Shown piece after piece: positions 8,277 through 53,840 of a DNA stretch of 64,000 bases. The notes under the pieces were generated by a model. It saw only the letters and a program-made list of their open reading frames with translations, ran no database searches and was not told where the DNA came from. Both the position numbers and the translations under genes were made by a program. This DNA comes from an uncultured virus (IMG/VR IMGVR_UViG_3300031519_004497) (taxonomy: Duplodnaviria > Heunggongvirae > Uroviricota > Caudoviricetes): the IMG/VR virus record IMGVR_UViG_3300031519_004497. One strand, written 5' to 3'. Position 1 is the stretch's first letter. The number at the start of each line of letters is the position of its first letter.

Positions 8277-8288
8277 TGGAGTATTTAG

Positions 8289-13641: not shown

Positions 13642-14214
13642 ATGAATATTTTTATACTAGACAAAAACTTAGACAGATGTGCGGAGTATCATGTTGATAA
13701 GCATATTGTAAAAATGCCACTAGAAGCGGCACAGATGCTTTGCACAAATCATTGGATAGAGAAATACCTTGGGCATGTTCCACAAAAACTTACAAAAGAA
13801 GAGTGGGCAGTCATTAAAGAAGCCAAGAAAAATCCTGTCCGAGACTTTCCTTATTTACCTACTATGTACAATCACCCTTGTACCATTTGGGCTAGAGCTA
13901 CTCTGGATAACTACGAGTGGTTATTCGGCTATGCACTTTCCCTTAATGAAGAGTACAGATATAGATACGGCAAATCGCACAAAAGCGTGCATGAAGTTAT
14001 ACTTAACTTACCTGAACCCGTATCCTTACCACGAGACGGACTCACTGATTTTGCACAAGCCATGCCCGATGAACTCAAAGGAGAAGACACAGTAGAAGCA
14101 TATAGAAAGTTTTACCATAAAGATAAAGCGACCTTTGCTTCCTGGAAGTATAGGGATAAGCCACCTTGGTGGTCTGAAGAAGAGGCAGAGTATGAGCAAA
14201 GAATCACACGGTAA
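13642..14214 (+). CDS. Pyrimidine-dimer DNA glycosylase/DenV-like family protein
   Basis: MNIFILD..HVDKHIVKMPLEAAQML, NHPCTIWAR, YRYGKSH, AQAMPD. Confidence 0.75.
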   Translation: MNIFILDKNLDRCAEYHVDKHIVKMPLEAAQMLCTNHWIEKYLGHVPQKLTKEEWAVIKEAKKNPVRDFPYLPTMYNHPCTIWARATLDNYEWLFGYALSLNEEYRYRYGKSHKSVHEVILNLPEPVSLPRDGLTDFAQAMPDELKGEDTVEAYRKFYHKDKATFASWKYRDKPPWWSEEEAEYEQRITR

Positions 14215-14587
14215 GAAGTACGATAGTGGTAAACCTAAACTGTATCTGCTTCCGCCTAAGTCTATAAATGAAGTAGGAAAAGTACTTACATTTGGAGCAG
14301 AAAAATACGACCCTCATAACTGGAGGAAAGTAGATGATTTACAGAACCGATACAGTAGTGCAGCGTTGCGTCACATATTCGCTCACATAGATGGGGAAGA
14401 CGCAGATGAAGAGACAGGACTGTCTCACCTAGCACATGCTATATGTTGTTTAATGTTTAAATTGGAGGATGAATTAATTGGCGAGAGTGAAGAAGAAGGA
14501 CTACGAGAACCTAACGAACACAAACATAGAGAAAGTAATAGAGCTGCTCTCACAAGAGAAAGCCATCACGAAAAAGGAAGCATGTGA
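14192..14587 (+). CDS. dATP/dGTP diphosphohydrolase (DUF5664-like)
   Basis: GKKYDSGKP..LLP, VLTFGAEKY..NW, ETGLSHLAHAICCLMF. Confidence 0.8.
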   Translation: MSKESHGKKYDSGKPKLYLLPPKSINEVGKVLTFGAEKYDPHNWRKVDDLQNRYSSAALRHIFAHIDGEDADEETGLSHLAHAICCLMFKLEDELIGESEEEGLREPNEHKHRESNRAALTRESHHEKGSM

Positions 14588-25564: not shown

Positions 25565-26129
25565 TACGTTCTGGCAATGGACTATATTAATTATACTGGT
25601 ACTAACAGGCTTCTTAATCAATGTATTTGACAAAAGACCAAGAGAAAACAGAGTTAACTTCACATACGAGGATATGCCCAGTATGAGACCTTTGCCTATT
25701 AAAACAGGTGAGAAAGGCTTTTGGGGTGCTATTTGGATGTGGTTAACTGGAACAAGAAAGTGGGAGCTAGCAGAAGACTTCAACTATACGCTTAATGATG
25801 ATGAGTTTGTAGTTCCTGAAGGTTTTGTTTTTGACGGAGCTTCTGTCCCTAAGTTTCTTGCAATCTGGCTGTCCCCCGTAGGAGTTCTATTGATGGGAGG
25901 TCTTGTGCATGACTATGGGTATAAGTACTCTAGGTTAAAGAAGCGTAATAGTCATTTTCGTGTAGAAGATGCTCAAGAGCAGAAGTACATGGATCAGTTG
26001 TTTAGAGATATATGTATAGAAGTGAATGGCTTTAGGTTGTTAAACTACTTAGCCTACTATGCGCTTCGTATCTGTGGCTTTCTTGCTTGGAATAAACATA
26101 AGAAAAGCGGTAGTCACGATGAGCTATAG
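25539..26129 (+). CDS. DUF1353-like membrane-anchored protein
   Basis: VPEGFVFDGASVP, GGLVHDYGY; N-terminal TM. Confidence 0.7.
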   Translation: MEELWALASTFWQWTILIILVLTGFLINVFDKRPRENRVNFTYEDMPSMRPLPIKTGEKGFWGAIWMWLTGTRKWELAEDFNYTLNDDEFVVPEGFVFDGASVPKFLAIWLSPVGVLLMGGLVHDYGYKYSRLKKRNSHFRVEDAQEQKYMDQLFRDICIEVNGFRLLNYLAYYALRICGFLAWNKHKKSGSHDEL

Positions 26130-26490
26130 TAAACAAGTACTCGACCATTATCAAAACCCACGTAATGTGGGTAAGATGGAGATTACTGATAAGGTTGGCA
26201 CAGGTATGGTGGGAGCACCAGCCTGTGGTGACGTTATGAGATTACAGATAGAAGTGGAGGACGGTATCATTACAGATGCAGTGTTCAAAACCTATGGGTG
26301 TGGTAGTGCTATAGCGTCTTCTTCTCTTCTAACAGAGTGGGTTAAAGGGCGAACTTTAGAGTCTGCTAATAGTATAAAAAATGTAGAGATAGTAGAAGAG
26401 TTAGCCCTTCCTCCTGTAAAGATACATTGTAGCGTACTTGCGGAAGACGCAATTAAAGCTGCAATCAAAGACTACAGAGGTAAGCACTAA
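26119..26490 (+). CDS. iscU: Fe-S cluster scaffold IscU
   Basis: YSKQVLDHYQNPRNVG, GAPACGD, YGCGSAIAS, LPPVKIHC. Confidence 0.96.
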   Translation: MSYSKQVLDHYQNPRNVGKMEITDKVGTGMVGAPACGDVMRLQIEVEDGIITDAVFKTYGCGSAIASSSLLTEWVKGRTLESANSIKNVEIVEELALPPVKIHCSVLAEDAIKAAIKDYRGKH

Positions 26491-34109: not shown

Positions 34110-34917
34110 TTTTAACGACCAGAGAAAGACGGGTACACTTGTAGTAGACGCTCTTAACTTAGCATTTCGTTGGAAGCATGCAGGAAGGTCAGACTTTAGA
34201 TACGACTATATTAAGACAGTACAGTCGTTCGCTGACTCATACAAGTGTAAAGATATAATTATTACAGCAGACGGAGGTGCTTCTAGTTATAGAAAGGGCA
34301 TACGATCTGACTATAAAGGGAACAGAAAAGAGAAGTACGCAACCCAAACGGAAGAAGAAAAAATTGCGTTTGAAGAGTTCTTTGAAGAGTACCAAGCTAC
34401 TTTAGATATGATAGAGTGGCCTGTGTTACAATACGCTGGAGTAGAGGCTGATGATATAGCAGCACATCTAGTAAAGAACAAAGAGGAGTTTGGGTTCGAG
34501 AATATGTGGTTAATCTCTAGTGATAGAGACTGGGACTTGCTTATACAAGAGGGTGTAAATAGGTTCTCATATGTAAATAGAAAAGAAGTAACTATAAACA
34601 ATTGGTACGATCATTATGAAGTTACTCCAGAGGAGTTCATCTCTCTCAAGTGCTTAACCGGAGATAAGGGCGATAACGTCCCTGGTATTCCTGGCATTGG
34701 CCCAAAGAGAGCTTATGTACTTATAAAAGAGTATGGAGATGCCTTCAGTATATACGACGCAGCACCTATTGCAGGCAAGTATAAATATATAGAGTCTCTC
34801 AATGAGAACTATGAACAAATATTACAGAACTATGAATTAATGGATTTGATTACTTACTGTGATGAAGCTATCGGTAAAAATAATGTTGCCGAGATAAAGG
34901 AGAGGTTTGCGTGTTAA
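34099..34917 (+). CDS. D15: Flap endonuclease/5'-3' exonuclease (T5 D15)
   Basis: YKGNR, EADD, SDRD, GDKGDNVPGIPGIGPK. Confidence 0.93.
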   Translation: MAISFNDQRKTGTLVVDALNLAFRWKHAGRSDFRYDYIKTVQSFADSYKCKDIIITADGGASSYRKGIRSDYKGNRKEKYATQTEEEKIAFEEFFEEYQATLDMIEWPVLQYAGVEADDIAAHLVKNKEEFGFENMWLISSDRDWDLLIQEGVNRFSYVNRKEVTINNWYDHYEVTPEEFISLKCLTGDKGDNVPGIPGIGPKRAYVLIKEYGDAFSIYDAAPIAGKYKYIESLNENYEQILQNYELMDLITYCDEAIGKNNVAEIKERFAC

Positions 34918-36680
34918 TAAATTATGATAGAGATAATTATCTATCGGAGTTCAGTCATAAAACTTTACAAGACAGGTACTTAATAGAGGGCGAAACTTCT
35001 CCTCAAGATGCGTTTGCAAGAGCTGCTAAAGCTTTTTCAGATGATGATGCTCATGCACAGAGGCTATACGATTATGCTAGTAAACTTTGGTTCATGTTTT
35101 CTACTCCTATACTTTCTAATGGTGGGACATCCCGTGGGCTGCCTATTAGTTGCTTTCTTAATTATGTTGAGGACAGCAGACAAGGACTTACCGGGCATTA
35201 CACTGAGAATGCCTTCTTATCTAGTGTGGGTGGTGGCGTTGGGGGCTCTTGGAGCGCTGTACGCTCAGTAGGGTCTACAACCTCTAATGGATCAGAAAGT
35301 ACTGGTGTTATACCATTCATGAAAGTCGTGGACGCTGAGATGTTAGCGTTCTCTCAAGGAGTCACAAGACGAGGTAGTTATGCAGCATATTTGGACATAT
35401 CACATCCAGAAGTTGAAGAGTTTCTGGATGTTCGCAAGCCTACAGGCGGCGATGTTAACCGAAAATCAGTTAATTTACATCATGGTGTCCTTATTGATGA
35501 TAGATTCATGGATATCATAGAGCAGGCTACGCGAGTAGAAGGCTTTGATGACTCTTGGGACTTGATTGACCCACATAGTAAGAAAGTTATTAAGACTGTG
35601 TCTGCTAAAACTCTATGGGTGAAGCTCATACAGAACCGAGTTGAGACAGGCGAACCGTACATTATGTTTAAAGACACTGTACAAGCTGCGTTACCTCAGT
35701 TCCAGAAAGACTTAGGGCTGCAGGTAAATCACTCTAACTTATGCTCTGAGATTACGCTTGCAACAAACGCGAATCGTACAGCAGTATGTTGTCTATCTAG
35801 TGTAAACTTGGAAGAGTATGATGAGTGGAAAGATAATCCACAGTTTATAAATGATCTAGTAAGAATGCTAGATAATGTGATAACTCATTTTTGCGAGGCT
35901 GCTCCTGCACAGCTATATAGAGCAGTAGCAAGTGCAAAAGCAGAAAGAAGTATAGGTCTGGGGGCTATGGGCTTTCATGCTTATTTACAACGCCACAACA
36001 TTCCTTTTGAGAGTGCGATGGCAAAAAGCAGGAACAATAAAATGTTCGGCTTTATAAAAGGAGAGGCTGAAAATGCTACAAGAGAACTGGCTGTGGAACG
36101 TGGCCCGTGCCCTGATGGGGCTAGTGCTGGGGTTCGGAATGCTCATTTGTTGGCTGTGGCTCCTAATGCTAGCAGCAGTATTATCTGTGGTAATACTTCT
36201 CCCAGTATTGAGCCTTACAGGGCTAACGCATTTACTCAAAAAACTAAATCTGGATCTTCCTTACTGAAGAACGAGTACTTAGAACATGCTCTACAAGAGA
36301 TAGGGCAGGACACGGATGACGTTTGGAAAAGTATTATTACGAACGGAGGCTCAGTACAACACTTAGAGTTTCTCGACGACTATACAAAGGACGTATTCAA
36401 GACTGCTGTAGAGATAGACCAACGTTGGGTTATCGAGATGGCAGCGGATAGACAGGAGAAGATATGCCAGAGCCAGTCTCTAAATATATTCTTTCCGTCT
36501 AATGTATCAAAACAAGAACTCCACGCTATACATATGATGGCATGGAAAAAGAAAGTAAAAACTTTATACTATCTAAGAAGTGAGGCATCAAAGCGCGCAG
36601 AGACGGTTTCCGATGAAGCGCTACGTCAGTACATATTTGACAGTATAGACGACGAAGGCTGTTTAGCTTGTGAAGGGTAA
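34911..36680 (+). CDS. nrdA: Ribonucleotide reductase class I alpha subunit (no ATP cone apparent)
   Basis: PISCF, SNLCSEI, APNASSS, TLYYLR, C-terminal CLACEG. Confidence 0.95.
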   Translation: MLINYDRDNYLSEFSHKTLQDRYLIEGETSPQDAFARAAKAFSDDDAHAQRLYDYASKLWFMFSTPILSNGGTSRGLPISCFLNYVEDSRQGLTGHYTENAFLSSVGGGVGGSWSAVRSVGSTTSNGSESTGVIPFMKVVDAEMLAFSQGVTRRGSYAAYLDISHPEVEEFLDVRKPTGGDVNRKSVNLHHGVLIDDRFMDIIEQATRVEGFDDSWDLIDPHSKKVIKTVSAKTLWVKLIQNRVETGEPYIMFKDTVQAALPQFQKDLGLQVNHSNLCSEITLATNANRTAVCCLSSVNLEEYDEWKDNPQFINDLVRMLDNVITHFCEAAPAQLYRAVASAKAERSIGLGAMGFHAYLQRHNIPFESAMAKSRNNKMFGFIKGEAENATRELAVERGPCPDGASAGVRNAHLLAVAPNASSSIICGNTSPSIEPYRANAFTQKTKSGSSLLKNEYLEHALQEIGQDTDDVWKSIITNGGSVQHLEFLDDYTKDVFKTAVEIDQRWVIEMAADRQEKICQSQSLNIFFPSNVSKQELHAIHMMAWKKKVKTLYYLRSEASKRAETVSDEALRQYIFDSIDDEGCLACEG

Positions 36681-36834
36681 AGTCTGGTTAATTTGGAAGT
36701 ATACTATTGGCAGTTTCAGTGATGATAAGACACTAGAGTATGACAATATTATTGCAGGTATTAGAAGTATAATAGTAATAATAAATGTTGTAACCTGTTT
36801 GTTTATCACATCAAACATAGTACATAATTGGTGA
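36670..36834 (+). CDS. Small membrane protein (54 aa)
   Basis: MKGKVWLIWKYTIGSFSDDKT...NIVHNW fills the nrdA-nrdB gap. Confidence 0.6.
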   Translation: MKGKVWLIWKYTIGSFSDDKTLEYDNIIAGIRSIIVIINVVTCLFITSNIVHNW

Positions 36835-36837
36835 AAA

Positions 36838-37800
36838 ATGAGTGATTTATTAGTAGAAAGAGAGTATTATAAGCCTTTCAATTACCCTTGGGCATTTGAG
36901 TATTATAAGCAACAGCAACACATGCACTGGTTACCTGATGAAGTTAACCTTGCAGACGATCTGCGTGACTATAGAGAAAAAATGACTGAAGGTAACAAAA
37001 GGTTACTAGGACAGATTTTTAGGTTTTTTACACAGGCTGATGTAGATGTATGCTGTGGATATGCAAAGCACTATCTACCTACATTTAAGCAGCCTGAAGT
37101 AAGAATGATGCTATCCGCTTTTGCAGCAATGGAAGCAGTGCATCAAGAAGCGTATTCGTTGTTGCTGGAGACCCTAGGTTTCCGCGATGATGAATACCAG
37201 AAGTTTTTCGAACATAAAGAAATGTTGGATAAACATGAGTACTTGGGAAATTTTGGTATGGAAACTCCGATGGATATCGCTAAGACACTGGCTATCTATT
37301 CAGGGTTTACCGAGGGAGTTCAGCTATTTAGTAGTTTTGCTATCTTGTTGAACTTTCCGAGACATAACCTTATGAAAGGTATGGGTCAAATCGTCACATG
37401 GTCTGTACGAGATGAAACTTTGCATGTTGAAGGAATGTCACATCTGTTCCGAGCATTTGTAAAGGAGAACCCTGACATATGGAATGATGATCTAAAGTAT
37501 GAAATCTATTGTGCAGCAGAACGCACAGTGGAACTAGAAGATGCTTTTATTGATTTGTGTTTTGAAGGTGCGGAAGTACCCAATCTAACACCTGATGAGA
37601 TAAAAGGCTATATTCGTTATATTGCAGATCGCAGACTATTAGGACTGGGACTAAAGAAAATATTTAAGAGTACAGAGAACCCGCTAGGCTGGTTGGATTA
37701 CATGCTCAACGGGGTTGAACACACTAACTTCTTCGAGAATAGGTCTACAGAATATTCAAGAGCAAGTACAACTGGTAACTGGCAGGACATTTTTAAATGA
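36838..37800 (+). CDS. nrdB: Ribonucleotide reductase class I beta subunit
   Basis: FFTQAD, EAVHQEAY, EG..LFSSF, RDETLH, NFFE. Confidence 0.95.
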   Translation: MSDLLVEREYYKPFNYPWAFEYYKQQQHMHWLPDEVNLADDLRDYREKMTEGNKRLLGQIFRFFTQADVDVCCGYAKHYLPTFKQPEVRMMLSAFAAMEAVHQEAYSLLLETLGFRDDEYQKFFEHKEMLDKHEYLGNFGMETPMDIAKTLAIYSGFTEGVQLFSSFAILLNFPRHNLMKGMGQIVTWSVRDETLHVEGMSHLFRAFVKENPDIWNDDLKYEIYCAAERTVELEDAFIDLCFEGAEVPNLTPDEIKGYIRYIADRRLLGLGLKKIFKSTENPLGWLDYMLNGVEHTNFFENRSTEYSRASTTGNWQDIFK

Positions 37801-37964
37801 ATGAAAAAATAAATTTGCAACTAACTATAGAAGAGATAAATGCGGTCATATCAGGTTTAGCAGAACTTCCAGCTAAAGTAAGTATGAACCTTATAACTTC
37901 TATACAAAACCAAGCGGCTGCACAAATGCAGCCTACCGTAGGAGAAGCACCACTTGAAGATTAA
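37797..37964 (+). CDS. Small hypothetical protein (55 aa)
   Basis: MNEKINLQLTIEEINAVISGLAELP...; overlaps both the nrdB stop and the TBDR start. Confidence 0.6.
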   Translation: MNEKINLQLTIEEINAVISGLAELPAKVSMNLITSIQNQAAAQMQPTVGEAPLED

Positions 37965-40398
37965 GATAGTAACGTGTCTACTTGCCATTCTTATACTAGG
38001 AATGAGCGCACGATCGGCAGCAATGGAAGAAATAGTAGTACTAGGAGACCTAGGTAGCTTGCCAGGGGAGAGTGTAAAGTCAGTATTTGGCTTTAACAAA
38101 TCCCTATTAGAGACTCCCCGTTCTGCTTCCACTATCTCGGAAGAGATGATGGAAAGGTTTAACATGCATGATATTGATGAGTTAATTGCCTTAGCACCGG
38201 GTAGTTTTACGCAGTCTTTTTTCGGAGTAGCAGGAGGTCTTGATGTTAGAGGGACTCCTGGAGAAACTTACTTTAGGGGTGTGAGACGTCTTGACAACCC
38301 AGGTAACTATCCAACTCCTATAGGTGCGTCCGATAGAGTTGACATAGTAAGAGGTCCAGCATCTCCTATCTATGGCCCCTCTAAGATCGGAGGTTATCTA
38401 AACTTTAACCCTAAGTCTGCACGAATTGAAGAAACTGGTCAGTTCATAACGGAGACAGAGGGTGCTATATCCTACACAACTGGAAGCTGGGGCAAGAGTA
38501 CGCTAACAGCAGAAGTTGGAGGTCCGGCCACTGTTTTTGGTAAAGACCTAGGATACTATGTGTATACTGAGCTAGAAGACTCTGATAGTTATTATGATAA
38601 CTCAGGAGTGGAGCAAAATCTTTTCCAGACTTCTTTCGATATGGATATCACGGATAATGTTAGAATACAGTTCGGGGGAATGTATCATGACTATTCGGGT
38701 AATCAGATAGCAGGTTGGAATAGAGTTACACAGGATTTGATTGATGATGGAACATACATCACGGGGTCTCCCGCCTCGCTAGATGTTAATGGGGATGGTA
38801 GAGTATCTCATCAAGAGTACGATACCGATGGAGATGGGTTCACTAACTACAATCCTTTTAGGTTTGATTTCTTAAGTGGTGCTTCAGGAGGTGCCCTTAC
38901 AGCGGGGTCGAACGAGACCTTAGCAGACTTAGAAGTATTTGTAGGCGACCTATCATATATGGCACTCATAAATCCAGGGCTTACTAAGCTGGATGGAAGT
39001 AATGTTCTAGTAGACCCAGAAGATGTCCTAGAGAATCAAGTAACTACGTTGTACTTTGACGTAATTATTGCACTCGGGAGTGACTGGGAGCTGAAGAACC
39101 AACTGTTCTTTGAAGAATACGATAACATTAATGAAAATGCTTATGGTTTCTCACAATTTCATAAGAGTTGGGTAGTAGAGGATAAAATCATACTATCTAA
39201 GACATATGACTTTGAGAGCATGTCTGCATCTTTTCAAATATCTCCATCTATACGTCACACTGATTTCGAACACGGTGATGACTATACAAATGAGTATTTT
39301 GGAAGACGCGATCTAAGCCAGCCTCTTAACACTTCAGTTGCAAAACGATTGTTATCCACCAAAATTGATACTGATTACACAGAGTATTACATTGGTGAGT
39401 ATACAAACTTAGGATTTGCCGTAATGACAGATTTGGTTTGGAACAATGGTTTAGGCATTCTCGCAGGTGTACGGTATGATACAATTGATATGGAAAGCAG
39501 CCAGCCAGAGGGACAGCTTCTCTTTGCTAGTTCTAATAACTTCTGCCCAGTTGCAGGTTGTGCGGACTTAGATGCCGAAGATACAGTTGATGGAATATCG
39601 TGGACTGCTAGTATTAGTTATGATTCTCCAATAGGGCTAATTCCTTACATTACGGCCTCTACACAGTCAACTATGATTGTTGGGCAGGGTGCAGAAGTCA
39701 CCGTTAAAAATATTCTGAAAGGAAGAGCTTTTGACGAGTCAGAACTGCTGGAAGTAGGAATAAAAGGAAGCTTTCTCGATGATAGCCTCTACTTTGCTAT
39801 TTCTAACTACAGGCAGGAACGTACTGATTTTTCCGCACAAGCAATTGTAACGAATCAAGCCACAGAGACTAAGGGTACAGAAGTAGAAGTACGCTGGGTT
39901 GCTACTGAGAAGCTACTGCTAACGCTAGGCTACTCAAATATCAAAGTAGTAAACATAAATACTTTGGATGATGGGTACCGTTACAGTTTCATTGGGTGTG
40001 AAGACTTACCGAATATTCCATGTAGTGCGCTATTAGGCGGACAACTTGGTGGTAATGTCTCTGTAGGAGATAGCGGAGCCAGAAGAGCTGGTATGCCAGA
40101 GAACATAATCTCAGCTACTGGTACTTATGACTTCGGTAATGGGTGGACTGTAAACGGTAGTATTATCGACGTAGAGAGTACTTTCTCTGGGTTCTCTAAT
40201 AGTATCGAACTACCTGCTTACACCTTGGTAAATCTAGGCTTTTCCTATGCTAGGAATGACTGGATGCTTAGCGTAAGTGGAAAGAACCTGACGGACGAGA
40301 AATACTTCCGAGCAAACTTTCCAAACTTATTCGGAAGTACAATCGTACTGCCCGAGTTACCACGAAACTATACTGCTAGAGTACAGTATACTTTCTAA
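37954..40398 (+). CDS. TonB-dependent outer-membrane receptor
   Basis: Signal peptide, TonB box EEIVVLG, plug motifs ETPRSASTIS and RVDIVRGPASPIYG, barrel end KNLTDEKY...PRNYTARVQYTF with terminal Phe. Confidence 0.95.
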   Translation: MKIKIVTCLLAILILGMSARSAAMEEIVVLGDLGSLPGESVKSVFGFNKSLLETPRSASTISEEMMERFNMHDIDELIALAPGSFTQSFFGVAGGLDVRGTPGETYFRGVRRLDNPGNYPTPIGASDRVDIVRGPASPIYGPSKIGGYLNFNPKSARIEETGQFITETEGAISYTTGSWGKSTLTAEVGGPATVFGKDLGYYVYTELEDSDSYYDNSGVEQNLFQTSFDMDITDNVRIQFGGMYHDYSGNQIAGWNRVTQDLIDDGTYITGSPASLDVNGDGRVSHQEYDTDGDGFTNYNPFRFDFLSGASGGALTAGSNETLADLEVFVGDLSYMALINPGLTKLDGSNVLVDPEDVLENQVTTLYFDVIIALGSDWELKNQLFFEEYDNINENAYGFSQFHKSWVVEDKIILSKTYDFESMSASFQISPSIRHTDFEHGDDYTNEYFGRRDLSQPLNTSVAKRLLSTKIDTDYTEYYIGEYTNLGFAVMTDLVWNNGLGILAGVRYDTIDMESSQPEGQLLFASSNNFCPVAGCADLDAEDTVDGISWTASISYDSPIGLIPYITASTQSTMIVGQGAEVTVKNILKGRAFDESELLEVGIKGSFLDDSLYFAISNYRQERTDFSAQAIVTNQATETKGTEVEVRWVATEKLLLTLGYSNIKVVNINTLDDGYRYSFIGCEDLPNIPCSALLGGQLGGNVSVGDSGARRAGMPENIISATGTYDFGNGWTVNGSIIDVESTFSGFSNSIELPAYTLVNLGFSYARNDWMLSVSGKNLTDEKYFRANFPNLFGSTIVLPELPRNYTARVQYTF

Positions 40399-40399
40399 G

Positions 40400-40696
40400 C
40401 TACCATTTGACCTTGTCCGCCCAGTACGCGGCGGACATTTTACCTCTTGCAATATTCTTTGCATGCCGCGCTTTAAAACTATTTCTCTTAGCCTTCATAG
40501 CAGCAGACTCTCCCGCCTTGGGTTTACCTGCGGTTTTAGCACCTTGCTCTCCAAAACGAATAGTCTTGATCTTACTTCCAACTTTTGCTACAACTATATG
40601 TGACTTTTTCTTGTGACTAGGAGTACGCTTAGGTTTATTAAACCCTTTCACACCTGCACGTTTCAGCCTAGAACTCCCTTTCTTCTTAACAGCCAT
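40400..40696 (-). CDS. Highly basic conserved phage protein
   Basis: MAVKKKG...KTIRFG...SFKARH...SAAYWADKVKW; GAGGA RBS. Confidence 0.7.
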   Translation of the reverse strand: MAVKKKGSSRLKRAGVKGFNKPKRTPSHKKKSHIVVAKVGSKIKTIRFGEQGAKTAGKPKAGESAAMKAKRNSFKARHAKNIARGKMSAAYWADKVKW

Positions 40697-40766
40697 TGGA
40701 TTCCTCACACTGACACGGGTCACATTTGCATATATAGCATGCACAGCTCTCTTCTTGATCTTCCAT
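40686..40766 (-). CDS. Cys-rich metallothionein-like peptide (26 aa)
   Basis: MEDQEESCACYICKCDPCQCEESNGC; TAATG-coupled to the upstream gene. Confidence 0.5.
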   Translation of the reverse strand: MEDQEESCACYICKCDPCQCEESNGC

Positions 40767-41347
40767 TATATTGCCTCCCCCGGCCAGTTCTGAGCGCCCA
40801 TAACAACTGCTAGAGCATCAATATCTGCCGCACCTGTGATAGCTGCTTTAAGCCTATCATATTCTGTTATTACTGCCGCACGATAAGTTACAGTTGCAGC
40901 AGGTATCTCTACGCTTCTTTCTGCTTTGCGTATAACCATCCAATCTGTATTCGCAAGTGCGCTATTAGCCTGACTCTTGATTCGATTTTTAAAGGTATAC
41001 TTGAGACCCCGAGTTATTAGCTTCTCGCTAGTGTCTGAACCTATGCCATCACTATCATATTCTTGCACATACAACTGGTTGCCATCTGAGTCTACAGCGT
41101 CTACGTCTTCAATAGCCCTAGCAGTGTTAGTATATTGCTGTGTAGGAACACCGTCTACTAAGACGACATCCCCTTGATTGACATAGTAGTAAAGTCGGTC
41201 TTTTCTCTCCGCTTCTACTACATCTTGTATATTATTTTCCGTCAGAAATTGTGAATTAGGCATTCCTGAAAAGGATACGTTTGGGAACATTTTCTGAACT
41301 GAAAAGCCGGTTCTTACTATTGCTCCATCTTGTACTTGTGCGAACAT
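40766..41347 (-). CDS. Tail fibre assembly/chaperone-like protein
   Basis: LANTDWMVIR...TYRAAV...WP C-terminus; follows a fibre gene. Confidence 0.65.
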   Translation of the reverse strand: MFAQVQDGAIVRTGFSVQKMFPNVSFSGMPNSQFLTENNIQDVVEAERKDRLYYYVNQGDVVLVDGVPTQQYTNTARAIEDVDAVDSDGNQLYVQEYDSDGIGSDTSEKLITRGLKYTFKNRIKSQANSALANTDWMVIRKAERSVEIPAATVTYRAAVITEYDRLKAAITGAADIDALAVVMGAQNWPGEAI

Positions 41348-41359
41348 TTATTTCTCCTA

Positions 41360-44128
41360 TTATCTTGCGTTTGCGTATTTGAAGGGTGACTCTGCGAAAG
41401 CCATGTAGACGTAGGCTCCAAAGCCAGTAGCATCAGTATTATTTAAATGGTTATATGAGCCTCTTATCTTAAACCCGTTTGACAAAAAATCGCAGCTAAC
41501 AAGGGTATATTCAGCGTTAGTTCCCTGTGGCTGTAAAAATTCATCCACCACATTGTCAGGACTTATTTTGCTATCGTATAATGTCCAAGCATAACCCTGA
41601 TGAGGTCTATATTGGGCAGCCACATCATTATACCTCTTGATCAGTACCCAAGCAGGCTTGAAACCTAAATTAACAAATGGCCCATTTGTAGATCCATTGC
41701 CTTGGTAAGTGCCAATTTTGCTGAAGCCGGGTTTTGAGGCGAAGCAGTAAGCAACTACAGGCTGAGAAGTAGTATGGGCATTATTGCTAATCATTGTTGA
41801 TGTAGCTATTTCTCCGTTTAAAAGGTAATCGGTGTTAATGCTGCTTGCATGGAGAGTAGATTGAAGAAGCAACCGCATGTTACCACTAACGATGCTAGAA
41901 TGAATCCAATTTTCCCAGCTACTGCCTACTCTTGACTTGTACCACACAAAATCTGGAACAACGCCTAAACCATGAGGAACTGTGGCATTGCGATTTGGTG
42001 CTCCTGTCCCTGTCCCTGTCCAAGTAACAATACTAAAACCAGCCGCTTGATTAGCAGATACCGTACTTTTTATATCACCATCAAAATAACTTGAGCCATG
42101 GGTACTATTTGTATTTATCTGCCCTCCCATCCCGGAGTGAACAGTACAGTAGTAATAAAGAGTTGCGGCAGAGGCTGCAACAGTAATTTTTGTATATGCT
42201 CCAGGGCTTCCAGGGCTTCCATAAGTTGTTACGCCTGTAGTATACTCCGAGCCTCCACCATGGCTTCCGTTGGAAGTAGTGGAAAATCTAAGAGGATGCC
42301 CGCTATTAGAAGAGTCGGATTGGTCAAAAGTATAAGTTCCTCCCTCTTGTAAATCAACAGTTTGTGCACTCGCGGCAAAATCATCAAATCTGTATTTGTT
42401 TCCGCTATCACTTACAACTTTAACAACATAAGTTTTTGCAGGTGTAGCACCTCCCGCTTTCCAGTTCCAAGCTGCATAAGTATGGCTGTTTCTATTTACA
42501 AAATAAGTATTATCGGAGTTATCGCCTAACGTAAACCCGTTGGACACAAAACTCGTTAGTTGTGTCGTTTCGCTTGCTGCTTCCGCAACGGCGGCGTTAG
42601 ACGCTAGAACCTTAGCGGAGCCGTTTGTTGCTGTATTAAAACCTCTCACTGCATCAGCTAAGTAATGGTATCCAGTGGTATTTCTTGTTTTTATCCATGT
42701 AAAATCAGGCTGCATACCGACGTCAATTGTTTTAGCTGTTTGGTTACCCGCATACAACACCGTATTAAAATGCTCGCTCGGGGTAATAGCGGGGTCTGGG
42801 AGGTTGGCGGTTGATAAGGCTACATAACCTGATGGTGGTGTATAGGCAAACGCTTTTTGCCCAAAGTTAGCCTCTGCTGTTACACCTGCTGAATTACCAG
42901 AATCACCGGCAGCAAACGTAACATTTGTTAAATCCGCACTTGTTGCGGTGTACTGAAGACTATTATTCTTGTACCACTTAACTGTTGAATTGTCATAGTC
43001 TATTGCAACTGCAATAAGATCATTAGTTGTAAATGTTGCAGGAGCAGAACTAAGGACGTTAGAGCCGTTATAATAAACGTTACCGTTGCTACCTTGGTAC
43101 GCCATGTTTTTAGTTGAACCGGAAGGTAGCCATGTGCTATTTGTTATTGCCGTTGCCGTTGAAACATCTCTAACGCCGTAGTTTCCATTATCTCCGCTTG
43201 TTGTTCCTTTAAACTCTGCGTAGTATTTACCGCTTGTAGGTAAAATTGTGGCAAGAGAAGTGCCGTATCCGCCAGTTGGCGTTACAATTTTTAAGTTCCC
43301 TTCGCTGAAGGTGTTACTTGCTGACCCTGTGTACAACGGATTCAACGTAGCAAAGTTATTCGTAGGCGAATCGGTTACAACGTCAGAGTTGGCGAGGTTA
43401 CTTGCAGTGTAGTTGTTGCCTTGGCCAGAACTATCAGTGCCTAAAGCACCACTTGCAAACTTTAAGTAAAAGCCGTTAGTGCCATAGCTGCCGCTGTATT
43501 TTTTGGGTATCCACTGTCCTGTGTCTTCGTTGGTTTCTCCGAAGGAGCTAGGAGTAAGCGCAGTGCCGTCAATGAGATGATACTCAGCCATGTACCCGTC
43601 CCAATACTTGGCACTTGCATAGCTAACAGACCCTACTGTTTGAGGGTAAGAAACTCTGTTTACAGGGAAATCAAAATTTTGACTTGGGTTATTTCTTACC
43701 GCAAAAGAAGTTTCTTCTACGCCATTAATGTAAATCCTAACTCTGTTATTTGCTGTACCAGATGTAGTATCTACTGCTACAACTACATGATACCAAGCAG
43801 AGTGGTCACGAAATACCCGATTAGTCCTCAACCAATTCTGATTCCAACCGCTAACTCTTAAATCACCGTTATAAAAAATTACAGAAAAAAAGCTATTGTC
43901 ATTATCTTGACCGTTAACATGCGCCCCAAAAAGATAATAACTGTAGTTTGAAACAGCCGCTTCTCCGATCTTAAACCATGCACTAATAGTAAAAGTCCTA
44001 CGGTTTCCTCCGCTAGACGGAGTTCTTTCTAGCTTTGAAGAGCTTGCTTTGTTAAAAATTAGCGACTGCTCTATCTCGTAAGCGCCCGAAGCACCACTGC
44101 CCATCATTATTTTACTTGCATTACTCAT
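41360..44128 (-). CDS. Large virion appendage/tail-fibre protein (LamG/ConA-like, SPRY-like and cupredoxin-like modules)
   Basis: TFTISAW...WYHVVVAVD (LamG), GKYYAEF/IAVAID (SPRY-like), YYYCTVHSGMG; start MSNASK is coupled to the upstream stop. Confidence 0.7.
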   Translation of the reverse strand: MSNASKIMMGSGASGAYEIEQSLIFNKASSSKLERTPSSGGNRRTFTISAWFKIGEAAVSNYSYYLFGAHVNGQDNDNSFFSVIFYNGDLRVSGWNQNWLRTNRVFRDHSAWYHVVVAVDTTSGTANNRVRIYINGVEETSFAVRNNPSQNFDFPVNRVSYPQTVGSVSYASAKYWDGYMAEYHLIDGTALTPSSFGETNEDTGQWIPKKYSGSYGTNGFYLKFASGALGTDSSGQGNNYTASNLANSDVVTDSPTNNFATLNPLYTGSASNTFSEGNLKIVTPTGGYGTSLATILPTSGKYYAEFKGTTSGDNGNYGVRDVSTATAITNSTWLPSGSTKNMAYQGSNGNVYYNGSNVLSSAPATFTTNDLIAVAIDYDNSTVKWYKNNSLQYTATSADLTNVTFAAGDSGNSAGVTAEANFGQKAFAYTPPSGYVALSTANLPDPAITPSEHFNTVLYAGNQTAKTIDVGMQPDFTWIKTRNTTGYHYLADAVRGFNTATNGSAKVLASNAAVAEAASETTQLTSFVSNGFTLGDNSDNTYFVNRNSHTYAAWNWKAGGATPAKTYVVKVVSDSGNKYRFDDFAASAQTVDLQEGGTYTFDQSDSSNSGHPLRFSTTSNGSHGGGSEYTTGVTTYGSPGSPGAYTKITVAASAATLYYYCTVHSGMGGQINTNSTHGSSYFDGDIKSTVSANQAAGFSIVTWTGTGTGAPNRNATVPHGLGVVPDFVWYKSRVGSSWENWIHSSIVSGNMRLLLQSTLHASSINTDYLLNGEIATSTMISNNAHTTSQPVVAYCFASKPGFSKIGTYQGNGSTNGPFVNLGFKPAWVLIKRYNDVAAQYRPHQGYAWTLYDSKISPDNVVDEFLQPQGTNAEYTLVSCDFLSNGFKIRGSYNHLNNTDATGFGAYVYMAFAESPFKYANAR

Positions 44129-48228: not shown

Positions 48229-49803
48229 TTATACTGCATATCTTATGATTACTATTCCTGAACCGCCTGCTGCACCATAGTTGCCAGTGTATCCACCAGC
48301 ACCACCACCACCTCCAGTGTTAACCGTTCCTGCAACAGGTGTTGTGGGAGATAAAGAAGTATCAGGGCCTCCTCTGCCTCCTCCACCATTGCCTCCTGCC
48401 CCTTGTTGACCATTTGTTCCATCAGGGAAGCCACCGCCTGCTCCCCCACCACCAGCGTAATAAATACCATTCAGCCAAGCAGCGCCTACACCTCCATCAC
48501 CTCCCTGATGGTTTGATCCTCCATCACCCCCTACAGCGCCTTTTCCTCCTCCACCGCCAGAGCCTGAGTATGTGCTACCACTTATATGACATAATCCGCC
48601 TCCGTTACCTTGTCCTGAAGTGCCGTTGCTTCTGTTGGGATTGTATGATGAGCCTCCTCCAGAGCCCCCATCTCGTCCTAGACCTACCCTATCTGGAAAA
48701 CCCCCACCTCCGCCTCCACCGATACAAGTAGTTTGGCCTGTTGCGGTAGTATTACTTCCGCTGTTACCACTATAAGCACCGGTTATTGCAGCACCTCCTG
48801 CACCTATGACAATACTAACTGTTCCATTTAAATTGGGGGTTGAGGCTATCATACCTCCTGCACCTCCGCCCCCTCGATTACCACTACCGGTAGTATTAGC
48901 ACTAGGGCCTCCGCCTCCGCCTGCTACCATAAGCATCTGCACCGCCCCTGACATATTAGCAACAAAGTTACCTGAGGAAGTAAATGTATGATATCTATAA
49001 CCTCCAGCAGTAGTTATAGTTCCTCCAGTAGGATCGAACACTTGAGTAATTGTCTGTGTATACGCTTGAGTTGCAAAAGCGCCTCCAGCATCTGATGCTC
49101 TAATAACAAAGTTATAGGTAGCATTTGCTTGGTTAGTAGCAGTACCTGTAAGAGTAGTATTTCCTGCAGTAGGAAGTACTGCCCCAGCTGGAAGAGTGCC
49201 CGACTGTAAAGTATAAATTAGATTAGCATCAACACTCTCAACATCAGCAAAGTTAAGCCCTAGATTATAGCTAAAAGTGCTGAACCCTAATTGGGTTGGA
49301 ATAGTAACTGTTCCACCTGTAGGAACCGGAGGTGTATTAGTGTCTAGTGGCAGCCATGCTGTACCATTACTAAGATAAAGCTTATCTGTAGTAGTATTAT
49401 AGTATAAAGTGCCTTCAGAAGCCACAGAAGGAACGGAGGAAAGCTTTTGTATTGTTGCAGGAGTAATAAAGGACATAGCTCCTGAACCATCAGTAGAGAG
49501 TACCTGACCTGCGCTACCGTCTGTGACGGCTAACTTTGCTATGTTAACAGCATTAGTTGCTATAGTAAGAGCAGCCGCGCCTGTTACGTCGCCGGTATGC
49601 GTAGCGTTAGTCACCTTCGCAGTATTAGCAGTTATAGCACTGTTAATAGAGTTAGCTAACTGGTCTGCAGTAACAGCATCGTCTGCGATCTTAGCTGTCG
49701 TAACCGCATCGTCCGCAAGAACAGTGTTAACCTTAGACGCAGGAACAGTGTCGGAAGCAGTACTCATTAAATTGGCAAGCCTACGGGCTTTAGAAAATGC
49801 CAT
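48229..49803 (-). CDS. Glycine-rich fibre protein, paralog 1
   Basis: ADDAVT repeats, Ig-like module, YHTFTSSG + Gly-rich domain, GSGIVIIRYAV end. Confidence 0.7.
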   Translation of the reverse strand: MAFSKARRLANLMSTASDTVPASKVNTVLADDAVTTAKIADDAVTADQLANSINSAITANTAKVTNATHTGDVTGAAALTIATNAVNIAKLAVTDGSAGQVLSTDGSGAMSFITPATIQKLSSVPSVASEGTLYYNTTTDKLYLSNGTAWLPLDTNTPPVPTGGTVTIPTQLGFSTFSYNLGLNFADVESVDANLIYTLQSGTLPAGAVLPTAGNTTLTGTATNQANATYNFVIRASDAGGAFATQAYTQTITQVFDPTGGTITTAGGYRYHTFTSSGNFVANMSGAVQMLMVAGGGGGPSANTTGSGNRGGGGAGGMIASTPNLNGTVSIVIGAGGAAITGAYSGNSGSNTTATGQTTCIGGGGGGGFPDRVGLGRDGGSGGGSSYNPNRSNGTSGQGNGGGLCHISGSTYSGSGGGGGKGAVGGDGGSNHQGGDGGVGAAWLNGIYYAGGGGAGGGFPDGTNGQQGAGGNGGGGRGGPDTSLSPTTPVAGTVNTGGGGGAGGYTGNYGAAGGSGIVIIRYAV

Positions 49804-50858: not shown

Positions 50859-52304
50859 TTAGACTGCGTATCTTATAATTACTATTCCTGATGCACCTGA
50901 ACCTGCGTTAGTATTTTTATTACCCCCGCCACCGCCTCCAGTATTTACAGCGCCAGCGGTGTTGGAATCTCCCCCACCTCCGTTACCTCCTGTAGAGGCG
51001 GATACGTTTCCGCCATTACCACCACCACCACCTGCGAAGTAACCACTATCACCCGTACTTGTAGCACTCGCCCAAGTAGCATAAGTATTAGTTCCAATAC
51101 CTCCTTCGCCAGTTCCTACATTTCTACCAGCAGCACCAACAGCGCCTTTACCGCCACCACCACCACCGCCGAAAGCTGAGGACCCCGAGCCTTGGCCACC
51201 AGCATTACCTTGGCCTGCTGTACCGCTCCCGCCAAGCTCCACTTGTGGGCCTCCACCACCAGAACCTCCACTACCTGCGTTAGCATAAACATAACCAGAA
51301 ATACTGCCGCTAGGGTGTGAACCACCACCACCACCACCGATAGCAGTTGTAAGCCCTGTAACTGTAGTATTACCCCCTTGTGTACCAGGTGCACCGTTGG
51401 CCCCTGATTGACTACCACCTGCTCCAACAGCAATAGTTTTGTTAGAGCTTAGGGTGAAAGCTTCATAAATAAACCCTCCAGCTCCGCCGCCACCTGCTCC
51501 CCGGCCACCACTATACTGGTCTCGGCCCCCGCCACCGCCTCCAGCTAAAATAATAGCTTGTGCGCTTTCAGTTTTATTACCGAAAGTTAAAGTTCCTGAT
51601 GAAGTAAAAGTATGATATCTATAACCTCCAGAGGTAGTAATTGTACCTCCTGTAGTAGCGACAAAAGCTGTGATTGTCTGTGTATACGCTTGAGTTACAA
51701 AAGCGCCTCCAGCATCTGATGCTCTAATAACAAAGTTATAGGTAGCAGTTGCTTGGTTAGTAGCAGTACCTGTAAGAGTAGTACTTCCTACTGCAGGAAG
51801 TACTGCTCCTGCTGGAAGAGTTCCCGACTCTAAAGTATAAACTAGATTAGCATCAACACTCTCAACATCAGTAAAGTTAAGCCCTAGATTATAACTAAAA
51901 GTGCTTAGCCCTAATTGGGTTGGAATAGTAACTGTTCCACCTGTAGGAACCGGAGGTGAATTAGTATCTAGAGGAAGCCATGCTGTACCATTACTAAGAT
52001 AAAGCTTATCTGTAGTAGTATTATAGTATAAAGTGCCTTCAGAGCCTACAGAAGGAGCAGAGGAAAGTTTTGCTATTGTGGCATCTGCTGCTAATTTAGC
52101 TGCGGTTATGGCTCCGTCCGCTACCTTAACTGTAGTAACTGCATTCGCCGCCAGCTCAGACACTGTGATTGCATTTGCGGCGATGTCTTCGGCCACAATA
52201 ACATCTACACCAATTTTTGCAGTGGTTACAGCATTGGAAGCTAACAGGTCTGTTGTAACAGCTCCGCTACTTAATGATCTACTATTTAATTTAGTTATTG
52301 CCAC
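50859..52304 (-). CDS. Glycine-rich fibre protein, paralog 2
   Basis: Same architecture; ends GASGIVIIRYAV. Confidence 0.7.
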   Translation of the reverse strand: MAITKLNSRSLSSGAVTTDLLASNAVTTAKIGVDVIVAEDIAANAITVSELAANAVTTVKVADGAITAAKLAADATIAKLSSAPSVGSEGTLYYNTTTDKLYLSNGTAWLPLDTNSPPVPTGGTVTIPTQLGLSTFSYNLGLNFTDVESVDANLVYTLESGTLPAGAVLPAVGSTTLTGTATNQATATYNFVIRASDAGGAFVTQAYTQTITAFVATTGGTITTSGGYRYHTFTSSGTLTFGNKTESAQAIILAGGGGGGRDQYSGGRGAGGGGAGGFIYEAFTLSSNKTIAVGAGGSQSGANGAPGTQGGNTTVTGLTTAIGGGGGGSHPSGSISGYVYANAGSGGSGGGGPQVELGGSGTAGQGNAGGQGSGSSAFGGGGGGGKGAVGAAGRNVGTGEGGIGTNTYATWASATSTGDSGYFAGGGGGNGGNVSASTGGNGGGGDSNTAGAVNTGGGGGGNKNTNAGSGASGIVIIRYAV

Positions 52305-52316
52305 TGTGTGCCTCCC

Positions 52317-53840
52317 TTAGACTGCGTATCTTATGATTACTATACCGCTAGAACCGTTTCCACCCCCGGTGTACCCACCAGTCGGGTAACCTCCCCCACC
52401 GCCTGAACCTCTGTTTGCGGGGGTTGCGTTATGGCCTGCTCTATTGCTGCTTGTTTCTCCATATCCCCCACTGCCTCCAACACCACTGCCTCCCACGCCT
52501 TGCGCGTTGCTATTATTTCTATAAGAGGCACCTCCACCACCTCCTGCATAAAAGTTACCTAAAGATTTCCAGTTTAATCCTATACCCCCACCTCCAGCTA
52601 CTGCACTAGTACTACCTGCACTTCCATTACCTCCTACACCTGCCTTGCCTCCGCCGCCTCCGGCGTCTCCATAAGATGTTCCAACCCCTGTTCCTCCCGC
52701 ATTTCCTTGCCCAGAAGTTCCAGCACCTCCGGCAGTACTATTAGCGTCTCTTCCTGAACCTCCACCTGACCCTCCTGCCACGCCGCCTCCATTACCTCCT
52801 GCACCTGCACCTCCTCCAATAGCTGTAGCAGAAAAAGCGACTGTATTTGAACCGCTTGCTCCGTTTCCTCCGGTTCCATTAGTAGTAGTATCAGAACCTG
52901 CACCGCCTGCCCCTATTGTAATTGTGTAGGATGTTGCTGATACTGTAGAGCTATTAGTCTCAATTAAGCCTCCCGCACCACCACCTCCACCTGCGAAGTA
53001 ACCAGATCCTCCGCCCGCACCACCTGCTAATGTCATGATATCAACAGAACCTGACGTATTACCTACAAAAGCACCAGAAGATGTAAACGTGTGGTACTTA
53101 TATCCTCCAGCAGTAGTTATAGTTCCTCCTGTACCTACAAAGGTAAGAGCAATTACCTGAGTATAGGCTTGGGTAGCAGAAGCTCCTTCGCTGTCAGTTG
53201 CTCTAATAACAAAGTTATAGGTAGCTGCGGTATTAGTAGCAGTACCTGTAAGAGCAGTATTTCCTGATGTAGGAAGTACCGCTCCAGCTGGTAAAGTGCC
53301 TGAGGCAAGTGTATAAGTTAGGTTTGCATCAGGACTATCGGCATCTGAAAAGTTAAGCCCTAGATTATAGCTAAAAGTGCTGAACCCTAGCTGAGACGAA
53401 ATAGTAACAGTTCCTCCTGTCGCTGCTGGAGGGAGGTTACCGACAACCTGCCATGCGGTGCCATCGCTAGCATGAAGTAAGTTGCTAGTAGTATTATAGT
53501 ATAAAGACCCTTCCGAAGCTACAGAAGGCGCTGAAGACTGAATATCAACACCTGCAGGTACTGCGGCCCAAGCGTTATCGCCCCGAAGGAAAGTTGTATT
53601 TGAAGGACTACCTGTAGCACTTAGCATAGGAATATCTACAGCATCAACGGCTATAGTAAGAGCCGTCCCACCTGTTACATCACCTGTATGTGTAGCATTT
53701 GTTACTTTAGCCGTGTTAGCAGTTATAGCACTGTTAATAGAGTTAGCTAACTGGTCTGCAGTAACTGCATCGTCTGCTATAAGTGCAGTAGTAACTGCAT
53801 CATCAGCAATCATATCCCCTGTTATTTTAGTTTGTGCCAT
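52317..53840 (-). CDS. Glycine-rich fibre protein, paralog 3
   Basis: Same architecture; ends GSSGIVIIRYAV. Confidence 0.7.
   Translation of the reverse strand: MAQTKITGDMIADDAVTTALIADDAVTADQLANSINSAITANTAKVTNATHTGDVTGGTALTIAVDAVDIPMLSATGSPSNTTFLRGDNAWAAVPAGVDIQSSAPSVASEGSLYYNTTSNLLHASDGTAWQVVGNLPPAATGGTVTISSQLGFSTFSYNLGLNFSDADSPDANLTYTLASGTLPAGAVLPTSGNTALTGTATNTAATYNFVIRATDSEGASATQAYTQVIALTFVGTGGTITTAGGYKYHTFTSSGAFVGNTSGSVDIMTLAGGAGGGSGYFAGGGGGAGGLIETNSSTVSATSYTITIGAGGAGSDTTTNGTGGNGASGSNTVAFSATAIGGGAGAGGNGGGVAGGSGGGSGRDANSTAGGAGTSGQGNAGGTGVGTSYGDAGGGGGKAGVGGNGSAGSTSAVAGGGGIGLNWKSLGNFYAGGGGGASYRNNSNAQGVGGSGVGGSGGYGETSSNRAGHNATPANRGSGGGGGYPTGGYTGGGNGSSGIVIIRYAV

Follow-up and report, generated by a model that had tools for sequence, protein, structure and literature searches.

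TonB-dependent receptors (TBDRs) carried by phages are, as such, already in print, with a SusC-like TBDR in the marine megaphage Mar_Mega_1 (PMC9723777) and six TonB-dependent transporters (TBDTs) in phages of ammonia-oxidising bacteria (AOB; bioRxiv 10.64898/2026.05.02.722434); as far as the accessible text of these two reports goes, they are complete, phage-encoded, and read as auxiliary metabolic genes. Here, we describe a likewise complete TBDR of 814 aa, encoded on the + strand (37954–40398, stop codon included) of a 64,000-nt stretch from an uncultured virus of the Caudoviricetes (IMG/VR record IMGVR_UViG_3300031519_004497; the whole stretch is referred to as the window). Compared with the printed phage TBDRs, which in the accessible descriptions are of the SusC type or of siderophore and heme types, it differs in subfamily, phage group, and host: the cellular context of its orthologues is that of purine nucleosides, and its carrier appears to be a Demerecviridae-like phage. 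A search of BFVD returned the megaphage SusC as the only other TBDR fold found (E 4.2e-21, 8% identity to the window TBDR), and a literature search for the exact phrase phage- or virus-encoded TonB-dependent receptor found no paper, with searches centred on auxiliary metabolic genes adding nothing more. Complete TonB-energised outer-membrane importers on phages are barely documented, their substrates being so far only predicted, and the concrete substrate hypothesis put forward here, purine nucleosides, would tie directly to phage DNA synthesis.

In phage T5, the TBDR involved is that of the host: FhuA of E. coli is used as the receptor, through the receptor-binding protein pb5, and then blocked by Llp, the exclusion lipoprotein by which T5-family phages protect themselves, whereas here the phage itself encodes the TBDR and no Llp-like lipoprotein adjoins it. 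FhuA shares the fold of the window TBDR (Foldseek E about 1e-33, TMt 0.78–0.79) at 13–14% identity. The accessible part of a recent report describes T5 as degrading host DNA to nucleosides, excreting them, and making nucleotides de novo (bioRxiv 10.64898/2026.04.02.716235). A case with the same logic as proposed below, in which the phage supplies the capture component only and the host the rest, is that of cyanophage PstS, a phage-encoded periplasmic phosphate-binding protein (bioRxiv 10.1101/2021.07.20.453049); going by the accessible text, PstS differs in being the periplasmic binding protein of an ABC transporter for phosphate on which experimental work exists, whereas the phage TBDR is known from sequence. 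Among cellular systems, the DNA-utilisation locus ddbABCDEF of Bacteroides thetaiotaomicron (PMC12478041) similarly combines a TonB-dependent transporter for nucleic-acid-derived substrates with exported processing enzymes, and differs, as far as its accessible description shows, in being SusCD-type with a lid partner, in taking polymer DNA as substrate, and in being a cellular system of the Bacteroidota.

The gene product was confirmed, at the level of sequence and predicted structure, as a complete TBDR, and all the features named in the original prediction, which had been made from the letters of the window (an intact 814-aa protein with signal peptide, TonB box, plug, barrel, and terminal Phe), were found. 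Residues 1–23 (37954–38022) resemble by inspection a Sec signal peptide: a basic n-region is followed by a hydrophobic core of 13 residues, and M24 comes directly after S-A-A. An equivalent leader is present in all 16 aligned homologues. The sequence EEIVVLG at residues 25–31 (38026–38046), which we take to be the TonB box from its general consensus form, lies in a region where E26, V28, V29, G31, and D32 are invariant in the 16 aligned sequences, as is the C-terminal F814 (...RVQYTF). The Pfam Plug domain (PF07715) matched residues 51–147 (46.4 bits; cut-off, 23.9). For the barrel domain (PF00593), the window protein did not reach an E of 0.001, while precomputed matches exist for some cellular orthologues. 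An AF2 model built on 85 diverse relatives (pLDDT 88.9, pTM 0.89; an earlier shallow alignment of 16 rows gave pLDDT 46.5 and was discarded) places a plug (approximately residues 51–165) inside a barrel of 22 long strands (residues 166–814), and neither the model nor the Pfam scan showed an N-terminal signalling domain. Foldseek comparison of the model with the PDB returned PiuA, FoxA, FhuA, and other TBDRs (E 2e-35 and weaker, TMt 0.75–0.79, 12–15% identity), and the family profile matched 51 solved TBDR sequences. The best curated family was the TonB-dependent siderophore receptor subfamily TIGR01783 (109.1 bits, E 2.3e-31), whose cut-off of 223.5 bits is more than twice that score. Between barrel strands 5 and 6, the protein has a long extracellular loop (residues 277–300, 38782–38853) that reads DVNGDGRVSHQE, then DTDGDGFT..., two consecutive motifs that we presume to be EF-hand-like; their residues are mostly invariant across phage and cellular copies and hint at calcium binding, and AF2 confidence is low at residues 293–313.

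The TBDR was found in phage genomes well beyond the window. A scan of viral contigs with the TBDR protein gave eight contigs at 82–100% identity; a second scan with nrdB (the ribonucleotide reductase small subunit gene, which served as the backbone marker for locating sibling phages) yielded three further TBDR-bearing contigs; and a public metagenome-assembled genome (MAG) contig labelled Rhodobiaceae (L021) proved to be a phage contig with nrdB (88%), orf55, the TBDR, and a tail fibre. The gene is thus present in 13 records including the window, between nrdB-orf55 and convergent tail genes, and wherever the contigs reach, the order is nrdA, orf54, nrdB, orf55, TBDR, and then convergent orf114 with the tail genes. 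In an independent DNA run (X2), unlikely to be the source sample, one 3722-nt contig spans 37494–41125 and bridges both junctions. Continuity across the gene and a syntenic nrdB-TBDR arrangement elsewhere, both put forward as checks alongside the original prediction, were therefore found, the latter in 12 further phage contigs; together with the phage-like codon usage given below, they bear out its view that a chimera or host carry-over looks unlikely. As it had also stated, no integrase, IS/transposase, or host-type flank was seen among the window ORFs scanned.

The protein relatives of the TBDR fall in two tiers, a phage tier of 16 clusters at 81–97% identity, whose contigs do not exceed 78.5 kb, and a large cellular group at 71–74%, with contigs reaching 0.25–6.5 Mb, whose members, where the sources name them, are labelled TonB-dependent receptors from MAGs of Pseudomonadales or Gammaproteobacteria. 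All 23 phage rows of a 114-row tree (quick IQ-TREE, LG+G4, SH-aLRT support only) formed one clade (SH-aLRT 100, stem 0.19) nested among cellular TBDRs from K189A, OM182, Ca. Azotimanducaceae, and unclassified Pseudomonadales MAGs, with the sister group to the phage clade left open; this was the outcome of the phylogeny against bacterial TBDRs that had been called for. The nearest cellular clade is 67–75% identical to the phage TBDR. Its chromosomal members (Pseudomonadales, Ca. Azotimanducaceae, OM182, and K189A MAGs; e.g., L017, L020, and L025) are full-length orthologues that share the signal peptide, TonB box, plug, 22-strand barrel, EF-hand-like-motif loop, and C-terminal Phe. The phage TBDR, in contrast, stands in a replication operon, without the enzymes and permease that accompany its chromosomal counterparts, and differs from them in third-position GC content (GC3; 0.33–0.36 in the phage copies and 0.35 in the window, against 0.55–0.60 in four cellular orthologues). 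The impression, gained by eye, that its codon style is that of the phage was borne out by relative synonymous codon usage (RSCU), which, set against that of 17 other phage genes, correlates at 0.81 for the TBDR, within the range of 0.55–0.89 seen for core genes, and at −0.11 to −0.25 for the four cellular orthologues. Near-identity to a host gene with host codon usage, which would have spoken for host carry-over, was not seen.

Signs of selection are consistent across the phage copies. Between phages, the TBDR is 85% identical, comparable to nrdA (89–90%), nrdB (93%), the flap endonuclease (FEN; 84%), and SbcC (82%). The four computable phage pairs gave dN/dS values of 0.056, 0.043, 0.032, and 0.053 (dS up to about 2.5–3.3), and two cellular pairs gave 0.074 and 0.052; phage-versus-cell pairs are saturated at synonymous sites and gave no dN/dS. 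Comparing the 23 phage sequences with the 22 nearest cellular ones, the two groups share 458 conserved, identical positions, and only 16 differences are fixed, all of them in the barrel and loops (residues 166–814) and mostly between similar residues, with none in the TonB box or plug. These data support the view that the TBDR is selectively maintained in working order and suggest a single old capture by an ancestor of the phage lineage from a marine Pseudomonadales-type gammaproteobacterium, followed by vertical descent. We class it on these sequence features as a putative host-derived auxiliary metabolic gene, resident in the phage and kept by selection.

The substrate was approached via the gene neighbourhoods of the cellular orthologues, a check suggested with the original prediction. 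Six cellular loci were annotated with Pfam (36 neighbours scanned), and 79 cellular loci were counted for purine genes within 6 kb of the TBDR. In the six, the TBDR lies within a purine cluster with adenosine deaminases, an NCS2 xanthine/uracil permease, and a polysaccharide-deacetylase-fold gene; a 470-aa adenosine/AMP-deaminase-like gene is directly upstream, a gene of the 'purine nucleoside permease' family NUP (PF06516) directly downstream, and beyond NUP follow allantoicase, ureidoglycolate lyase, and urease accessory genes. A lipobox in the NUP protein and a signal peptide in the deaminase-like protein would place the action of both in the envelope. Among the 79 loci, NUP is near the TBDR in 40, the deaminase-like gene in 39, and any of four purine genes in 48. 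The linkage holds in co-directional and in divergent arrangements (the latter being the K189A-type group), the nearest cellular clade is nearly always purine-linked, and the phage clade is nested inside this purine-locus orthologue family. In one locus (L022:10829–14299), an island of a HipA-like kinase and an AAA_15/AbiEii-type ATPase lies between the TBDR and NUP, with NUP 5 kb downstream. Because the cellular orthologues adjoin NUP, deaminase, permease, and purine-catabolism genes, purine nucleosides, and not iron, appear the most likely substrate. Regulatory sequences upstream of the cellular orthologues added no further clue: a sigma-54 motif search upstream of 17 gave nothing above shuffles, and Rfam models on eight cellular loci matched only a urease-associated sRNA model, with no purine or other riboswitch before the TBDR. 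The literature search found no paper on a purine-linked TBDR or on a characterised member of this orthologue group.

We therefore propose the following course of events. The TBDR would be transcribed as the last gene of a + strand replication and nucleotide-metabolism operon and translated from a TTG codon behind AGGAG; following established TBDR biogenesis, its signal peptide would direct Sec export, and the C-terminal aromatic signal would lead the BAM complex to insert it into the host outer membrane. To judge by orthology and gene context, it would there bind a purine nucleoside from outside the cell, or a purine compound close to it, and host TonB-ExbBD, acting through the conserved TonB box, would energise passage of the substrate into the periplasm. 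Processing might then fall to a host NUP-family lipoprotein, an exported adenosine-deaminase-like enzyme, and an NCS2 base permease, after which host salvage would feed the ribonucleotide pool and, via the phage NrdAB, the dNTPs. The phage would rely on host TonB-ExbBD, envelope enzymes, and salvage, as neither the cellular partners nor TonB_C were found on the phage side, and would itself supply the capture step only, plausibly because receptor number limits uptake at seawater concentrations; the carrier phage may also, like T5, not recycle host DNA. The many nucleotide-metabolism genes of the window, listed below, are in line with such a role. That the TBDR is a working nutrient importer of some kind we regard as likely, and that its substrate is purine nucleosides as an even prospect; infected cells would then probably draw on purines from outside when phage DNA is made. 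If true, infected and uninfected cells would differ in the dissolved organic nitrogen and purines that they remove from seawater, and phage gene content could indicate which nutrients are limiting. The phage TBDR also offers a way into a large family of marine TBDRs tied to purine scavenging, and natural sibling phages with and without the gene allow comparison.

Several observations weigh against this proposal. No purine gene is near the TBDR in 31 of the 79 cellular loci, mostly those of more distant relatives (58–67% identity) plus a few short contigs. Both the nearest curated family and the nearest solved structures are siderophore receptors, and since the match to the former falls below half its cut-off, the purine assignment draws on gene neighbourhood as its one source. 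NUP, the deaminases, and the permease were found neither in the window nor in the nine TBDR-bearing phage loci searched (L001–L008 and L021), and the 64-kb window showed no gene for purine salvage; the host partners and a compatible TonB are assumed to be present. Only five of the 54 informative sibling contigs described below carry the TBDR, and siblings have other outer-membrane barrels in the same slot, which might speak for surface remodelling and not for nutrition. Contigs from RNA libraries are compatible with transcription, in libraries that may contain DNA and from which neither strand nor level can be read.

The siderophore resemblance is the natural starting point for a different reading, in which the TBDR is a working importer of an iron or metal chelate, of a cofactor for NrdB (di-iron) and IscA/IscU, or of another scarce nutrient. 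TIGR01783 is the best curated match, the nearest solved chains are receptors for pyochelin, ferrioxamine, ferrichrome, and pyoverdine, genes for IscA, IscU, and NrdB are present in the phage, and siderophore- and heme-type TBDTs are reported in the accessible text on AOB phages (bioRxiv 10.64898/2026.05.02.722434). Against this stand the sub-threshold family score, the 12–15% identity to the solved siderophore receptors, the lack of an N-terminal signalling domain, and the 36 neighbours in the six cellular loci, which include purine genes and no iron-uptake, FecIR, or siderophore genes. Fur-box matches upstream of 17 cellular orthologues were likewise no better than shuffles in 16 (the lone exception, L028, has five mismatches), the box sought being the E. 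coli consensus, which we assumed from general knowledge. Import of iron or cofactors, as the original prediction had entertained, is on this evidence unlikely to be the role of the TBDR. Its other suggestion, import of nucleosides or bases for the adjacent ribonucleotide reductase (RNR), fared differently in its two halves: nucleoside import is favoured by the cellular context, and the functional link to the RNR itself is weak, given the variable slot in which the TBDR lies.

A role at the cell surface deserves similar attention: the TBDR might bring about superinfection exclusion, lower rival-phage receptors by competing for TonB, BAM, or outer-membrane space, or act as a decoy on debris and vesicles. 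T5-family phages use TBDRs as receptors (as titles of PDB entries attest) and are generally known to protect themselves with Llp, the TBDR gene borders the tail-fibre module, and sibling slots hold an unrelated TBDR and a TorF-family porin, the latter sometimes in tandem with the window-type TBDR. Titration or a decoy, however, would need only part of the protein, whereas purifying selection on the phage TBDR covers the whole of it, plug and extracellular loops included, as strongly as in cells, and has left the TonB box and plug without fixed changes; the TonB-titration, superinfection, or decoy function raised in the original prediction leaves this unexplained. A decoy would moreover trap the phage's own progeny. 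There is also no co-variation with the receptor-binding proteins, as tail fibres are only 50–61% identical between phages whose TBDRs are 85–100% identical. As for an Llp-like lipoprotein beside the TBDR, we rejected both candidates, orf55 and orf114, which have neither a signal peptide nor a lipobox, and the TBDR is itself not a lipoprotein and so is not of the Llp type. We consider such a surface role rather unlikely. Still less can be said for a neutral or decaying passenger of a recombination hotspot without a role in infection: its accessory distribution (5 of 54) and the variable slot content would suit this, but no full-length copy has a broken frame, dN/dS lies at 0.03–0.06, codon usage is fully ameliorated, and three diverged phage sub-clades have retained the gene, which makes a passenger very improbable. 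Assembly chimera or host contamination has a negligible chance of being correct; no evidence for it was found beyond two wrong public MAG labels, which show that binning is error-prone, and the shared junctions in 12 further contigs, the bridging contig of an independent run, the phage-like composition, and nearest cellular proteins of no more than 75% identity all speak against it. Import by a working TBDR, most likely of purine nucleosides, is the reading that we favour.

The setting of the gene was compared across sibling phages. The nrdB search group comprises at least 600 related stretches in viral contigs, of which the best 80 loci were examined; 54 of these were informative, i.e., reached at least 1500 nt past nrdB, and five of the 54 carry the TBDR. 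In an nrdB DNA tree of 87 rows, the carriers form two groups in one 23-row sub-branch, with at least three state changes. A census of 90 rows for the cargo behind nrdB-orf55 found the window-type TBDR in 13 (the window and 12 locus rows), an unrelated 756-aa TBDR with Plug and barrel Pfam domains in two (L108 and L112), a TorF-family putative porin in nine (TIGR02001, 85.6 bits against a cut-off of 47.15), and a 2OG-Fe(II) oxygenase in five (L127, L137 at 8102–8746 on the + strand, and L141–L143). Most remaining rows hold none of these four types, and in many of them nrdB-orf55 is followed directly by − strand ORFs. The 756-aa TBDR (L108:8103–10373, + strand) has only short local similarity to the window TBDR; its relatives form a phage tier at 72–100% and a cellular tier at 61–62% on contigs of 1.2–1.4 Mb labelled Alphaproteobacteria, by which it is, on sequence, a second, independent capture. 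Contigs or proteins of this phage group have been misfiled in public bins, the Rhodobiaceae contig mentioned above (L021) being one case and a protein of the second TBDR type under a Euryarchaeota archaeon (P0273) the other. The TorF-family porin (~194 aa, with a signal peptide and C-terminal Phe) occurs alone, for example, at L090:7360–7944 (+ strand) and in L103, L104, L109, L121, and L139, and in tandem behind the TBDR in L004 (from 4899), L005, and L007, with its own terminator and RBS; in these three it forms a cassette of its own after a strong terminator, which in L004 separates the two genes. Co-capture of the porin with the TBDR was ruled out, there being no TorF-like gene in the cellular purine loci.

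Since the sibling slot holds other genes, the adjacency of the TBDR to nrdB appears to mark a cargo hotspot and not functional coupling. One may go further and picture a widespread marine T5-family lineage that reserves this slot, at the end of its replication operon, for exchanging host outer-membrane barrels (the two unrelated TBDRs and the TorF-family porin, at times two in tandem) and so sets what enters the infected cell. The purine-type TBDR would be a private route to external purine nucleosides for a phage that may not recycle host DNA; we offer this tentatively, and hold it to be doubtful as a whole. If it were true, cargo-slot phages would import purines, including those from neighbouring lysed cells, and infection would be one sink of the sea's dissolved purines.

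Sequence words of the TBDR region occur in six RNA-library runs, and the two examined (X15 and X17, from two studies) both have contigs over the TBDR, one of which spans 37010–38465, from nrdB into the TBDR. Depth in X17 falls to around zero beyond 40496, which was not used as a transcript end, as contigs cannot show one. A contig in X15 matches the TBDR to its stop (40398) and then continues into a different sequence with an RBS and an ATG; it probably derives from a variant phage with another + strand gene behind the TBDR, perhaps of the TorF type.

Turning to the operon in the window, the TBDR is preceded by nrdA (34911–36680, + strand; Pfam Ribonuc_red_lgC 1.7e-113, lgN 4.3e-16), which encodes the class I RNR large subunit and is 89–100% identical among the phage contigs bearing the TBDR, by nrdB (36838–37800, + strand; Ribonuc_red_sm 3.9e-73), and by orf55 (37797–37964, + strand), a small conserved phage gene of 55 codons. 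The frames overlap by 4 nt (nrdB/orf55) and 11 nt (orf55/TBDR), the TBDR frame runs uninterrupted for 814 codons from its TTG start, and AGGAG, read from the sequence at 37940–37944, precedes the TTG by 9 nt. Downstream, a 1-bp gap separates the TBDR stop (40398) from the end of the convergent orf114 (40400–40744, − strand). The overlapping frames, the RBS, and the 1-bp spacing to the late genes are all as the original prediction had them. A terminator-like hairpin (40414–40437, + strand; 8-bp stem with 6 G-C pairs, then TTTTACCTCT) lies 15 nt past the TBDR stop, within the 3′ end of orf114. It is the best of seven + strand terminator-like sites in 34500–41500 (3.6 expected from shuffles) and the probable end of the + strand operon. 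The overlapping frames together with this hairpin indicate that the + strand operon for replication and nucleotide metabolism ends with the TBDR; a promoter scan around the phage TBDR gave 16 matches against 17.3 expected, i.e., not above chance. No Pfam or PHROG family matched orf55, which is conserved at 46–70% also in sibling phages without the TBDR and had no homologue in the cellular TBDR loci; by these comparisons, it is phage backbone and not cargo. The very basic small protein of orf114 (phrog_7595, 4.2e-40) is encoded by the first gene of the convergent late/tail module that bounds the cargo slot, and it adjoins the slot also in sibling phages with other cargo.

The carrier itself appears, by its PolA and FEN, to be a Demerecviridae-like phage distantly related to the T5 family. 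Its PolA has its best match in the Aeromonas phage AhSzq-1 (45% identity) and its FEN in the Vibrio phage pVp-1 (48%), both Demerecviridae, and the layout agrees with that of T5, with early + strand genes converging on late genes. The description of the phage as T5-like therefore probably stands at the family level and finds no match at the DNA level, a megablast of the 4.6-kb region against 50,697 phage records returning nothing. A tblastn search of the TBDR against the phage records gave only five weak N-terminal matches (22–30% identity, coverage at most 32%), in Acinetobacter 'MD-2021a' contigs and in the Pseudomonas phage Y13, and a related phage record, a 25-kb fragment (G001), contains no TBDR. 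As stated at the outset by the original prediction, TonB, ExbB, and ExbD are absent from the window ORFs scanned; TonB_C was also absent in five of five related phage records, all of them fragments of 25–33% completeness.

Genes for replication and repair on the + strand of the window encode DnaB, primase, PolA, a helicase, SbcCD-like proteins, a PD-(D/E)XK nuclease, the flap endonuclease, and DNA ligase, and those for nucleotide metabolism NrdA/NrdB, ThyX, SHMT, PPK2, a dATP/dGTP diphosphohydrolase domain protein, PhoH, and a DHODH-like protein; a MazG-like gene is on the − strand. The predicted iron-sulfur assembly proteins IscA (11026–11340, + strand) and IscU (26059–26490, + strand) are both present. 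At 14135–14587 (+ strand), we noted the N-terminal domain of dATP/dGTP diphosphohydrolase (PF18909, 2.7e-33); as no adenylosuccinate-synthetase-like gene was seen among the window ORFs scanned, a modified-purine genome is not indicated. Codon usage departs from that of the rest of the phage (GC3 ~0.36) in PPK2 (1401–1991; RSCU r −0.16, GC3 0.47) and ThyX (11781–12446; r 0.38, GC3 0.48). PPK2 is a short, phage-type gene and was of no use as a clue to the host, since its close relatives are all on phage-sized contigs. A single tRNA gene, tRNA-Trp (CCA), is located at 3753–3826 (+ strand). From 40.4 kb on, the − strand carries tail fibres and tail proteins, among them three paralogues of ~480–525 aa (48229–49803, 50859–52304, and 52317–53840), all phrog_2295, which adjoin several tail-fibre-like genes in what appears to be a large and variable host-recognition apparatus.

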